Sequence record: PQ671645.1
Reading direction: 5' to 3' (one strand)
Length of the DNA: 64,000 nt
Source of the DNA: Escherichia phage DCP548
Below are positions 10,451 through 12,105 of the stretch, piece by piece. The position numbers were made by a program, and so were the translations under genes. Numbering within the stretch: the first letter of the stretch is position 1; each line of letters opens with the position of its first letter. The notes under the pieces were generated by a model. That model was not told where the DNA came from and did not search any database. It saw only the letters and a list, made by a program, of their open reading frames with translations.

Positions 10451-10822
10451 TTATTTGATTTTTGTCCACTTAGCTGAATCAATAACACCTTTTGCTTTAA
10501 TCTTCTCGATTAATGACTCTGCACGATTTCTAGCATTTTCGTACCATACAACATCTTCAGAGTAACCAGTCTCTTCATCTTCGTAAGTTTTAGAACGAAT
10601 ACAACCATAAACTGTAGAATTCAGACGGTAAATTTCACCAGTGAAAAAGTTTTCGATTTCGATATGATAACAAAAATCGTCTGAAGGGCCATCAGGAGTT
10701 GTACAATAAACCACATCACCTTGAACTGAACGAACCATCCATTGTAACTCGTTAACAACTTGAGATTTATATCCATCATGGTCACGGCATTTAATTGTAG
10801 CATTTAAATTGATAGTGTTCAT
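10451..10822 (-). CDS. Hypothetical protein
   Basis: 123-aa ORF with the same 5' architecture as 10011..10376 (duplicated promoter/SD region). Confidence 0.5.
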   Translation of the reverse strand: MNTINLNATIKCRDHDGYKSQVVNELQWMVRSVQGDVVYCTTPDGPSDDFCYHIEIENFFTGEIYRLNSTVYGCIRSKTYEDEETGYSEDVVWYENARNRAESLIEKIKAKGVIDSAKWTKIK

Positions 10823-10863
10823 TTTATTCTCCGGTTGTTTTATTGATTAGGTGGTACAAGTCT

Positions 10864-10892
10864 ATAGTAACACATCCTACAGGAGAGTAAAC
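10864..10892 (-). promoter_or_regulatory. T4-type early promoter upstream of ORF 10451..10822
   Basis: -35 GTTTAC (plus 10887-10892), 17-bp spacer, -10 TACTAT; surrounding about 70 bp resemble the 10377-10450 cassette. Confidence 0.45.
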
Positions 10893-10925
10893 ATCCTTTT
10901 TAAACTTTTTCTGCCCTAAACGCAC

Positions 10926-10947
10926 AAAAGGGAGACCGAAGTCTCCC
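10926..10947 (-). terminator. Intrinsic terminator after the small basic ORF
   Basis: gggagac-cgaa-gtctccc (10930-10947) followed on the minus strand by UUUUG. Confidence 0.5.
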
Positions 10948-10952
10948 TAAAA

Positions 10953-11132
10953 TTATGCAACAACCTTTCCAAAACGAGAAGCATCATCTCGAAGAACTGC
11001 ACGTGCTCTGCGCATGATCTTCTCAACGGTTTGATTAATACGAGAGTTCGACCCACGCTTGTATCCAGCGCGTTTAGAGGTACCATCAACTTTCTTTTCT
11101 ACTGCTTTCTTTGCTTTAGCTTGTTTTGCCAT
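10953..11132 (-). CDS. Small basic protein (59 aa), not in the ORF track
   Basis: ATG at 11130-11132, stop at 10953-10955; hand translation MAKQAKAKKAVEKKVDGTSKRAGYKRGSNSRINQTVEKIMRRARAVLRDDASRFGKVVA; followed by terminator hairpin 10930-10947. Confidence 0.4.
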   Translation of the reverse strand: MAKQAKAKKAVEKKVDGTSKRAGYKRGSNSRINQTVEKIMRRARAVLRDDASRFGKVVA

Positions 11133-11399
11133 TATAAATTCTCTTTAAATGAAAATGCAGGACTTATTGACATTGCCTGCTCAAGCCCTCAAGGGGAACA
11201 TAGGTTTTGGATATTTAACGTCAGGATAACCATAAACCCGTCATCATACCGACCACGACTTAGACAGATAACCTTTTTCTGACGCGTGATAGTACAAAAT
11301 ACATTCAAGAGGTACACCGTAAAATTGTCGGGGCGGTACTTCAAAACATACCGATTCGCAAATCGATAATCAGACAATTCGACGGCTCCTCGATTTAAC

Positions 11400-11648
11400 T
11401 TACTTCAGGGTAATAACAAAATGACGAACTGCTTTACGTGCTGCAGAAGCCAGAGGCTTAGCATATTTCAATTCATCTTTCTGGACCAGGATATCGCGAA
11501 GATCGGCTTGTGCTGGATTCAGATGTTTGAAATACTGTAAGATTTCAAGAGCTTCAGCTTCAACATCAATAGATGCGCCGTAATTGTCATGGCCATTATT
11601 CCATGCATGGCGTTGCAGTTCAAGAGCGTGTTGTAATTGTTTAGTCAT
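11400..11648 (-). CDS. rIII: rIII lysis-inhibition accessory protein
   Basis: 82 aa, same length and position (just upstream of gene 31 on the map) as T4 rIII. Confidence 0.8.
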   Translation of the reverse strand: MTKQLQHALELQRHAWNNGHDNYGASIDVEAEALEILQYFKHLNPAQADLRDILVQKDELKYAKPLASAARKAVRHFVITLK

Positions 11649-11772
11649 TTTAAATTCTCAATTCGAGATAATATTTAGTAGCCACGTTCTTCTGAATTTC
11701 ACCTTCTTTCGACAAGTCTCTCAGTTGTAGGCTACCGCTTAGAAGAGTGTTCTCTTCATATAGTTATTTATA

Positions 11773-12105
11773 TCACTTATAAAGACATGGAATAGCTTTA
11801 TAGTGGCATGTTACGAATTTCTGTTTAATTTCTTTAGGTTGTTTAAGTCCTAAAGCCACAAATGGATGTGGAACATTTCGAATTTGTCCAACTGGTAGTG
11901 GAGTCAAATCACCGACTTCAACAAAACCTTCAGGAACATCAGGACCTACAGAATGAACTACACATAGTTCAGGAACTTCACCTTGAACACGTTTACCAAT
12001 CACAAGTCCTGATTCGGTAACTTCTTCATCACCTGCTTGAGCGGGTTCAGAAACCAGAATGACATATTCACCAACAGCACGAATTGGGAGTTGTACTTCA
12101 GACAT
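11773..12105 (-). CDS. 31: gp31 co-chaperonin (GroES analogue for capsid protein folding)
   Basis: 110 aa; near-identical to T4 gp31 along its length ([28 protein letters not shown]...[11 protein letters not shown]). Confidence 0.95.

Follow-up and report, generated by a model that had tools for sequence, protein, structure and literature searches.

What is carried by the 267 base pairs (bp) that separate the lysis inhibition gene rIII from gene 30.9 in phages related to T4? The question is raised by a stretch of 64,000 nucleotides (nt) from Escherichia phage DCP548 (sequence record PQ671645.1), here called the window, in which the stop codon of rIII ends at position 11400 and the open reading frame of gene 30.9 starts at 11132, both genes being read on the minus strand. 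A sequence-only reading had noticed the gap between rIII and this small basic frame (11133–11399) as poor in open reading frames, and its boundaries and length proved exact. The equivalent gap measures 263 bp in RB69 (genus Mosigvirus, T4 family) and 244 bp in T4, and both reference records leave it unannotated. This region of the window shares 99.5% identity with Shigella phage phi25-307 and 93% with RB69, and with blastn the gap sequence was matched in 773 phage records, at one site per record. Comparison of related phages demonstrates that the gap is a non-coding stretch made up of five modules, named B, C, D, F and G, which are predicted to fold independently as RNA on the gene-sense strand, and that all five are held by purifying selection. 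As to their function, the explanation favoured here, with a probability of about 0.4, is that the modules are autonomous protein-binding RNA cassettes on the rIII-30.9 transcript, possibly decoys.

Comparative Evidence for RNA Structure

Spacers were taken from 40 loci around rIII homologues in the IMG/VR database and from T4, RB69 and one other phage. Extracted loci are labelled by L-numbers (L003, for instance, is T4, and L132 is an E. coli plasmid with a ToxI array). The coordinates of the modules in the window, all of them on the minus strand, come from nhmmer profiles. Pairing was tested as the percentage of alignment cells that are paired in the model, compared with the percentage obtained when the partners are slid out of register. 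By nhmmer each module is present in a single copy within the 64 kb of the window.

Module B (11302–11396, about 95 nt) is a long stem of three stacked helices, P1 GAGG/CCUC, P2 GCCGU/ACGGU and P3 GAAUUGUC/GACAAUUU, a structure that was also predicted independently by RNAalifold. Within the stem lie a C-rich single strand and a UGCG-loop hairpin (UAUCGAUU/AAUCGGUA), the AAAU at the 5' end is invariant, and P1 sequesters a Shine-Dalgarno-like GAGGAG. In the model 98.4% of the cells are paired, compared with 23–59% in the slid registers, and compensatory changes occur at five pairs. Within IMG/VR this single-copy module was seen only in T4-type contigs and only at the rIII-30.9 locus. Module C (11250–11292; nhmmer and pair count) is a two-tier hairpin with an outer stem AUCACG/CGUGGU, an inner stem CAGA/UCUG, a conserved loop of 9 nt (AAAAGGUUA) and a conserved UAAG in the internal loop; 92% of its cells are paired as against 27–53% when slid, with five compensatory pairs. 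It is missing in T4, and in other relatives a module of 135 nt, E, takes its place.

Module D (11196–11249) has the two interleaved helices of an H-type pseudoknot, both with covariation support, in an alignment of few lineages whose gaps were set by hand. Helix S1 pairs 11242–11237 with 11225–11220, helix S2 pairs 11234–11228 with 11206–11200, and an A-rich linker, GUUAAAUAUCCAA, spans 11219–11207. The copy in the window has one A.A mismatch in S1 and forms only four pairs in S2 (GGUU/AACC). Over the alignment 82% of the cells are paired (30–57% when slid), and both sides have changed in 8 of the 13 pairs, four of six in S1 and four of seven in S2. Three held-out sequences that were found later retain 10, 13 and 11 of the 13 pairs. 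Across genera, hardly any change is seen in the linker (ACGUWAAA...AAAC) or the segment GGUUAUC, and D occurs in every spacer examined. A near-identical GGUUAUC(C)UG is shared by C (11251–11291) and D, in each case as a loop plus the 3' strand of a stem; C may derive from D with only the hairpin kept, or may compete with it for the downstream AACC of D.

Module F (11182–11199; nhmmer) is a nearly invariant mini-hairpin, GUUCCCC-UUGA-GGG followed by CUUG, with an uncertain pairing register of 3–5 bp. It is the short inverted repeat CCCTCAAGGGG (11186–11196) which had already been picked out in the sequence-only reading and which is conserved as a hairpin. F was placed by nhmmer in 32 of 36 spacers and is readable by eye in three of the remaining four (L020, L026, L031). 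In the lineage of L033 its CCCU/AGGG is replaced by CCUC/GAGG, a single-lineage reading by eye that stands outside the formal pair counts. The direct repeat CTCAAG, noted along with the inverted one, is present at 11180 and 11188 but is incidental, its second copy being CTTGCG in T4 and RB69. Module G (11147–11180; nhmmer and pair count) is a hairpin GCAGG/CCUGC, formed by 11180–11176 with 11161–11157, whose 14-nt loop has the invariant core CAAUAAG (CAAUGUCAAUAAGU in the window) and which is followed by the U-rich AUUUUCAUUU. All of its cells (100%) are paired compared with 23–50% when slid, in six sequences only. Two pairs are compensatory, and in L025 and L028 the stem reads GAACUGG/CCAGUUC while the loop core is unchanged. 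A different hairpin occupies the position of G in other lineages.

On the minus strand only, G.U pairs far exceed A.C pairs, so the sense of the RNA is the sense of the genes. This makes it highly improbable that the element acts from the plus strand or as DNA, either through an antisense RNA whose promoter would be the plus-strand TATAAATT (11134–11141) or as a DNA hairpin or recombination site, since many G.U pairs of the helices would become A.C mismatches on the plus strand. The folding z-score is slightly lower on that strand (-1.34), and in one lineage the block was moved by recombination at a 13-nt repeat. While TATAAATT matches the T4 late promoter consensus at seven of eight positions and is directed antisense towards the spacer interior, its sequence is that of the 30.9 initiation region read on the opposite strand, and lineages with a different initiation region lack it; the match is probably incidental. 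Nor did a promoter scan find a sigma-70-like promoter in 11133–11399 on either strand.

The shapes of B and G bear on another explanation, considered unlikely here, in which the modules are processing or stability elements that give the rIII and 30.9 parts of the messenger RNA (mRNA) separate fates. They would shield the rIII message against exonucleases at its 3' end and would offer a cleavage site to RegB (at the GGAG in B), to ribonuclease III (RNase III, on the long stems) or to RNase E. Long interrupted stems such as that of B resemble the intercistronic RNase III sites of phage T7. Such T7 sites and the repetitive extragenic palindromic (REP) elements of bacteria have in common with the spacer that they are structured RNA between the cistrons of one operon; they occur in many copies per genome and tolerate changes in their loops, whereas the modules here occur once each and have invariant loops. 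Between gene 31 and rIII, a long hairpin GUAGCC...GGCUAC (11678–11730, minus strand; nhmmer E-value 7e-11) is homologous to G', the hairpin which precedes 30.9 in the T4-type phages of Klebsiella, and indicates that such hairpins recur between the genes of the operon. The interchangeable hairpin at the position of G would also suit a generic role, but a generic barrier needs neither a pseudoknot with invariant loops nor a G loop whose core is kept through the replacement of its stem. RegB cuts GGAG (PMC9409239), and the GAGGAG of B is invariant, yet this GGAG is largely base-paired, and distant relatives do without any spacer.

Coding Potential of the Spacer

The gap holds three short open reading frames, one of 62 amino acids with a TTG start on the minus strand and two on the plus strand, of 27 amino acids with a GTG start and of 26 amino acids with an ATG start. 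The sequence-only reading, in which there were only non-ATG starts or antisense shadows, was nearly right; none of the frames is conserved. In 14 of the 16 relatives which share the region the 62-amino-acid frame has CTG at the position of the start and a stop at the fourth codon, and it is frameshifted in the other two. The antisense ATG frame shifts about 20 codons in between the window phage and T4 and has no Shine-Dalgarno sequence, although T4 has an antisense ATG frame of 49 amino acids. Searches of the spacer frames against Pfam and PHROGs gave no match, and none of more than 40 relative loci has an intact gene at the position of the gap.

The alignable part of the spacer is 93% identical to T4. 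For rIII the identity is 67% at third codon positions and 90% at positions 1 and 2. The alignable sequence is thus more conserved than the first two codon positions of rIII, and it is under selection, but not as codons; the substitutions compensate within helices, unlike a codon pattern. A small protein gene or its remnant, be it the 62-amino-acid frame, a micro-frame at a conserved AUGAUG or the antisense frame of 26 amino acids, is exceedingly unlikely, and coding of the gap appears close to refuted by the comparison, even though GAGGAG lies 8 nt upstream of the TTG and a coding sequence for a 40-amino-acid 'hypothetical protein' has been annotated inside the gap in one deposited genome (L002, 1790–1912).

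Among the proposals of the sequence-only reading the decayed gene finds no support, as there is no intact gene among the more than 40 loci, the frames are not conserved and the sequence is under purifying selection. The structured RNA is supported by compensatory pair changes across related phages in four of the five modules (B, C, D and G) and by a conservation above that of rIII codon positions 1 and 2. The composition, described as less AT-rich than the surroundings, does not stand out: the guanine plus cytosine content of the gap is 0.404 compared with 0.379 for the window, which is the 77th percentile, and lies below that of the flanking genes (0.433 and 0.414).

Arrangement of the Modules in Related Phages

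The order B-C-D-F-G of the window is also that of RB69. T4 has A-B-D-F-G, some Mosigviruses C-D-F-G, VR26-type phages A-B-E-D-F-G, the loci L019, L022 and L043 F-D-(C'), Klebsiella phages D-A-E-F-G', and EcS1-type phages F-E-D-C'. Modules A, B, C and E come and go among the relatives, the order varies, and the distance from D to the start of 30.9 ranges from about 58 to 280 nt depending on the phage, with other modules intervening. By this comparison the modules behave as cassettes, present in differing subsets and orders at one site. In more distant T4-type phages the spacer is missing and rIII abuts the next gene; one of them has a 30.9 homologue 9 nt after rIII.

In two contigs (L041/L042, 1290–1640; also the contigs of L053 and L101) a transfer RNA (tRNA) cluster contains the complete A-B-D-F-G block. 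This block is bounded by the 13-nt direct repeat TTTATTGGAGATT, GGAGATT being also the 5' end of the next tRNA, and the sole coding sequence attached to it is a small chimeric frame in which the start of 30.9 is fused to the C-terminal codons of rIII. It resembles a spacer copy that has been transposed and circularly permuted.

Module E, which is not in the window, comprises about 135 nt (CGGCAAGUGCAUGC...GCUAACGGUGUGCAACAGAUAAGAG) and was found in L005 (1887–2021), L032 (1869–2003) and 16 other loci; the T4-type phages that bear it infect Klebsiella, Escherichia, Enterobacter, Yersinia and Salmonella. With an E-containing spacer as query, blastn gave 452 phage records, some of which were matched by other parts of the spacer than E. 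Its fold by RNAalifold has 44 pairs, 17 of them with compensatory changes, and a GNRA-capped hairpin. A loop-loop pseudoknot is probable, in which GAUGG/CCAUC covaries to AAUGA/UCAUU and CUAUGG/CCAUAG. In IMG/VR this module occurs only at the rIII-30.9 locus; it has no Rfam match and has never been annotated as RNA.

A leader acting in cis on 30.9 is a possible, if doubtful, alternative. The spacer, or at least D-F-G, would then set the level of 30.9, either as a leaky terminator or attenuator formed by the last hairpin and the U-rich tract, or through a protein, possibly gp30.9 itself, that binds the pseudoknot as a translational operator. The 30.9 initiation region does follow every spacer, the transposed copy included, the 30.9 product is small and basic, and in non-T4 lineages CUCC stands 5–6 nt before the GGAAGA Shine-Dalgarno sequence. 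The variable distance of D, with whole modules between it and the start and with D before or after F and E, speaks against a leader, as does the distant phage whose 30.9 homologue has none. A hairpin with a U-rich run is always found just upstream of the Shine-Dalgarno sequence of 30.9, though the sequence of the hairpin varies by lineage; G, with its 5-bp stem and 14-nt loop before AUUUUCAUUU, would be a poor terminator, and a terminator scan of 10700–11900 reported no terminator-like site in the gap but also missed the obvious hairpin after 30.9. The conservation of D is aptamer-like, and in L019, L022 and L043 the pseudoknot is followed directly by a hairpin with a U-tract, which resembles an aptamer with its expression platform; no alternative pairing was found, however, that would link the pseudoknot to the hairpin behind it, and no riboswitch family of Rfam matched. 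The proposal of the sequence-only reading that the gap is a leader with a translational operator is possible only for the part adjoining the 30.9 start, D at about 58–280 nt being hard to reconcile with a classical operator.

The mRNA leader of T4 gene 32 has an operator pseudoknot at a fixed place, which is followed by an unstructured A/U-rich run to the ribosome site. D is similar to it as a conserved H-type pseudoknot in an untranslated part of a T-even message, upstream of a gene for a small protein of the nucleic-acid-binding type. It differs in that neither its distance from the 30.9 start nor its order relative to it is fixed, and in the structured modules that lie in between.

A ToxI-Like Unit in Related Spacers

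Module A is a single ToxI-like unit, which in several T4-type lineages lies directly downstream of rIII (L004, 1755–1788; L026, 1834–1864; in T4 on the minus strand just after the rIII stop). ToxI, which serves the toxIN defence system as its RNA antitoxin, neutralises the ribonuclease ToxN. In VR26-type and Klebsiella phages 30–32 of the 36 nt of A are identical to the ToxI repeat AGGTGATTTGCTACCTTTAAGTGCAGCTAGAAATTC of an E. coli plasmid, which is present there in 5.6 tandem copies (L132, 1428–1627) just upstream of a toxin gene of the ToxN/AbiQ family. Among 65 plasmids that matched, the small enterobacterial ones listed have matches to this repeat at 3–10 places per record. A profile built from plasmid ToxI repeats only detected L004/L005 with an E-value of 5e-9, L026–L032 with about 1e-8 and L006/L017 with 1e-6. 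One phage lineage preserves the ToxI helix by a double compensatory change from UUGC/GCAG to UCGC/GCGG; the unit of T4 is degenerate (24/36 identical).

The architecture of type III antitoxins is an H-type pseudoknot whose tails are single-stranded (PMC5086642), and D is also an H-type pseudoknot with A/U-rich single strands. In contrast to ToxI it is larger, about 50 nt, has no sequence in common with it and never occurs in tandem. The pseudo-ToxI of the Pectobacterium phage PhiTE (PMC3475682) resembles the spacer as a phage-borne non-coding intergenic RNA element; unlike these two systems, the window has no ToxI-like unit, and no bacterial counterpart of D was found in plasmid, genome and metagenome searches. 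The open literature searched held no description under any of the subjects T4 rIII-30.9 spacer, T4 small RNAs, T4 pseudo-ToxI and ToxI-like phage units, and the accessible papers on toxIN and T4 do not mention the ToxI-like unit.

A bolder form of the decoy idea would make the rIII-30.9 spacer of T-even-type phages an RNA counter-defence island, a fixed landing site that collects and shuffles small structured RNAs; it is regarded as rather improbable. The RNAs would each neutralise a separate RNA-binding immune effector of the host, the ToxI-like unit being the one recognisable example, and B, C, D, G and E might be decoys, for instance for other type III toxins or for RNA-regulated abortive-infection systems.

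Search for Known RNA Classes

The covariance models of Rfam 15, applied to window positions 10700–11900 with E-values up to 10, gave only sub-threshold chance matches, none of which covers the modules meaningfully, and nothing was found in twelve related loci and the L032 spacer. As a control, the genuine ToxI array of 5.6 copies (L132, 1380–1700, E-values up to 10) was also missed by the copy of Rfam used, and the Rfam negatives therefore do not exclude type III antitoxin-like RNAs. ARAGORN found no tRNA or transfer-messenger RNA in the whole window. Some further candidates were dropped on inspection: a MotA promoter or a late promoter within the gap, a frameshift signal as there is neither a slippery site nor a reading frame, F as a match to a type I-E repeat of clustered regularly interspaced short palindromic repeats (CRISPR) as it extends over 7 nt only, and a pairing of the G loop with the rIII stop region as it is not conserved.

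Two further groups of elements from T4-type phages were compared. The stable RNAs species 1 and 2 of the T4 tRNA cluster, rnaC and rnaD, are structured non-coding phage RNAs too, and in one lineage the spacer block is found in the tRNA cluster; by eye no similarity of rnaC and rnaD to the modules was seen, and the modules sit in an mRNA, not in a tRNA precursor. The 'promoter-early stem-loop' (PeSL) elements, reportedly described by Arbiol et al. in 2010, are said to be mobile regulatory cassettes of T4-type genomes. They are like the spacer modules in being short non-coding cassettes that shuffle between intergenic positions, and a terminator hairpin lies just downstream of 30.9; in T4 a terminator hairpin at the matching place is followed by a promoter-like GTTTACA. 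The gap differs from them in having no sigma-70-like promoter, in modules that are single-copy and confined to one site, and in folds that comprise a pseudoknot and several helices, not a stem-loop with a promoter.

Possible Mode of Action

As D, F, A and E shift in order and distance relative to both flanking genes, action independent of position is inferred. Together with several invariant unpaired loops, position independence makes it likeliest that each module binds a specific partner, with titration or recruitment as the outcome. Each module would be an autonomous ligand for a protein, or possibly for an RNA, wherever it stands in the spacer, and the invariant single-stranded loops, that is the linker of D, the loop of G and the loop of C, would serve as contact surfaces. 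During infection they would most likely bind an RNA-binding factor of the host or the phage and either titrate or recruit it. For B and C, the accessory modules of the window, a role as decoys is the most plausible, with the ToxI-like sister cassette at the same site as precedent. D and F, the universal pair, probably have a partner which either is conserved from host to host or comes from the phage itself.

A number of observations weigh against binding cassettes and in particular against decoys. D and F are near-universal wherever the spacer exists, which fits a conserved housekeeping role better than a decoy in an arms race, and the spacer was never seen without the 30.9 initiation region downstream. 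The profile of plasmid ToxI repeats found nothing in the 64 kb of the window. A plasmid toxIN still blocks T2, T4 and T6 (PMC9391042); T4, the one of these three that was examined here, carries a divergent A and is blocked nevertheless, so a single unit need not protect. With blastn B, C, D, F and G had no match in 72,556 plasmids and in the complete genomes of E. coli. A strict D pattern matched 185,579 bacterial genomes of GTDB once, at chance level, and a tandem-D pattern disclosed no arrays in metagenomes, both being scans that would miss templates more than about 10% diverged. These negatives leave mimicry of a known bacterial RNA unsupported for all five modules of the window. In IMG/VR a degenerate D pattern gave mostly chance matches, from which an nhmmer filter retained T4-type contigs and weak partial matches with E-values of 0.04–1. 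The structures themselves rest on covariation among only about five to six independent lineages, and a scan of all column pairs also yields some isolated pairs outside the model. The folding energy of the single sequence is ordinary (z = -0.49 for the sense and -1.34 

Neighbouring Genes and Transcription

Every gene of the region is on the minus strand, in the order cd, 31.1, gene 31, rIII, the gap, gene 30.9 and a hairpin with UUUU. Gene 31 (11773–12105) is directly followed by the T4 late-promoter consensus TATAAATA (11765–11772, minus strand), which lies upstream of the long hairpin and rIII; at the equivalent site a late promoter is annotated in phage SA35RD. The upstream neighbour of the gap is rIII (11400–11648; phrog_1457, E-value 8e-42), which encodes the lysis inhibition accessory protein. 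The downstream neighbour, the 30.9 homologue (10953–11132; phrog_1427), encodes a basic protein of 59 amino acids for which searches of Pfam and the PDB found no relative. Several records annotated with Pharokka label this homologue a '1,4-alpha-glucan branching enzyme GH-13-type'; the label, like the 40-amino-acid coding sequence in the gap, looks like an annotation artefact.

The initiation region and start codon of 30.9, AAAGAGAAUUUAUA-AUG, occupy 11130–11146. The rIII initiation region GAGAAUUUAAAAUG is almost the same as that of 30.9, GAGAAUUUAUAAUG, and this near-identity suggests that a leader may have been duplicated. After 30.9 a strong hairpin GGGAGAC-UUCG-GUCUCCC followed by UUUU (10926–10947, read from the sequence) is the probable terminator of the transcription unit; a rho-independent terminator is annotated at the matching site in phage SA35RD. 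The spacer is probably co-transcribed with rIII and 30.9. For rIII early, middle and late promoters have been described (PMC9409239), and the spacer RNA would therefore be present throughout infection.

Biological Meaning

Few viruses have been studied as thoroughly as T4 and RB69, yet the spacer is unannotated in both reference genomes. It holds several RNA folds under selection, including a pseudoknot in every spacer-bearing T4-type phage that was examined, and these folds appear to be new RNA motifs in a much-studied genome. By analogy, one intergenic site which gathers shuffled RNA cassettes, one of them close to an antitoxin, may be seen as a variant of the themes known from pseudo-ToxI, PeSL elements and operator pseudoknots.

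The modules are small, their coordinates are defined and they can be deleted or transplanted, which makes the question of their function directly testable. Recent work has linked RIII to ribosomal protein S1 and to RegB (PMC9409239). If the modules act in cis, the spacer would be an unusual modular control region for rIII and 30.9. If they act in trans, the spacer would offer a defined locus for finding their partners and would add an RNA layer to phage counter-defence, which is so far known from the pseudo-ToxI of PhiTE and from RNA anti-CRISPRs.

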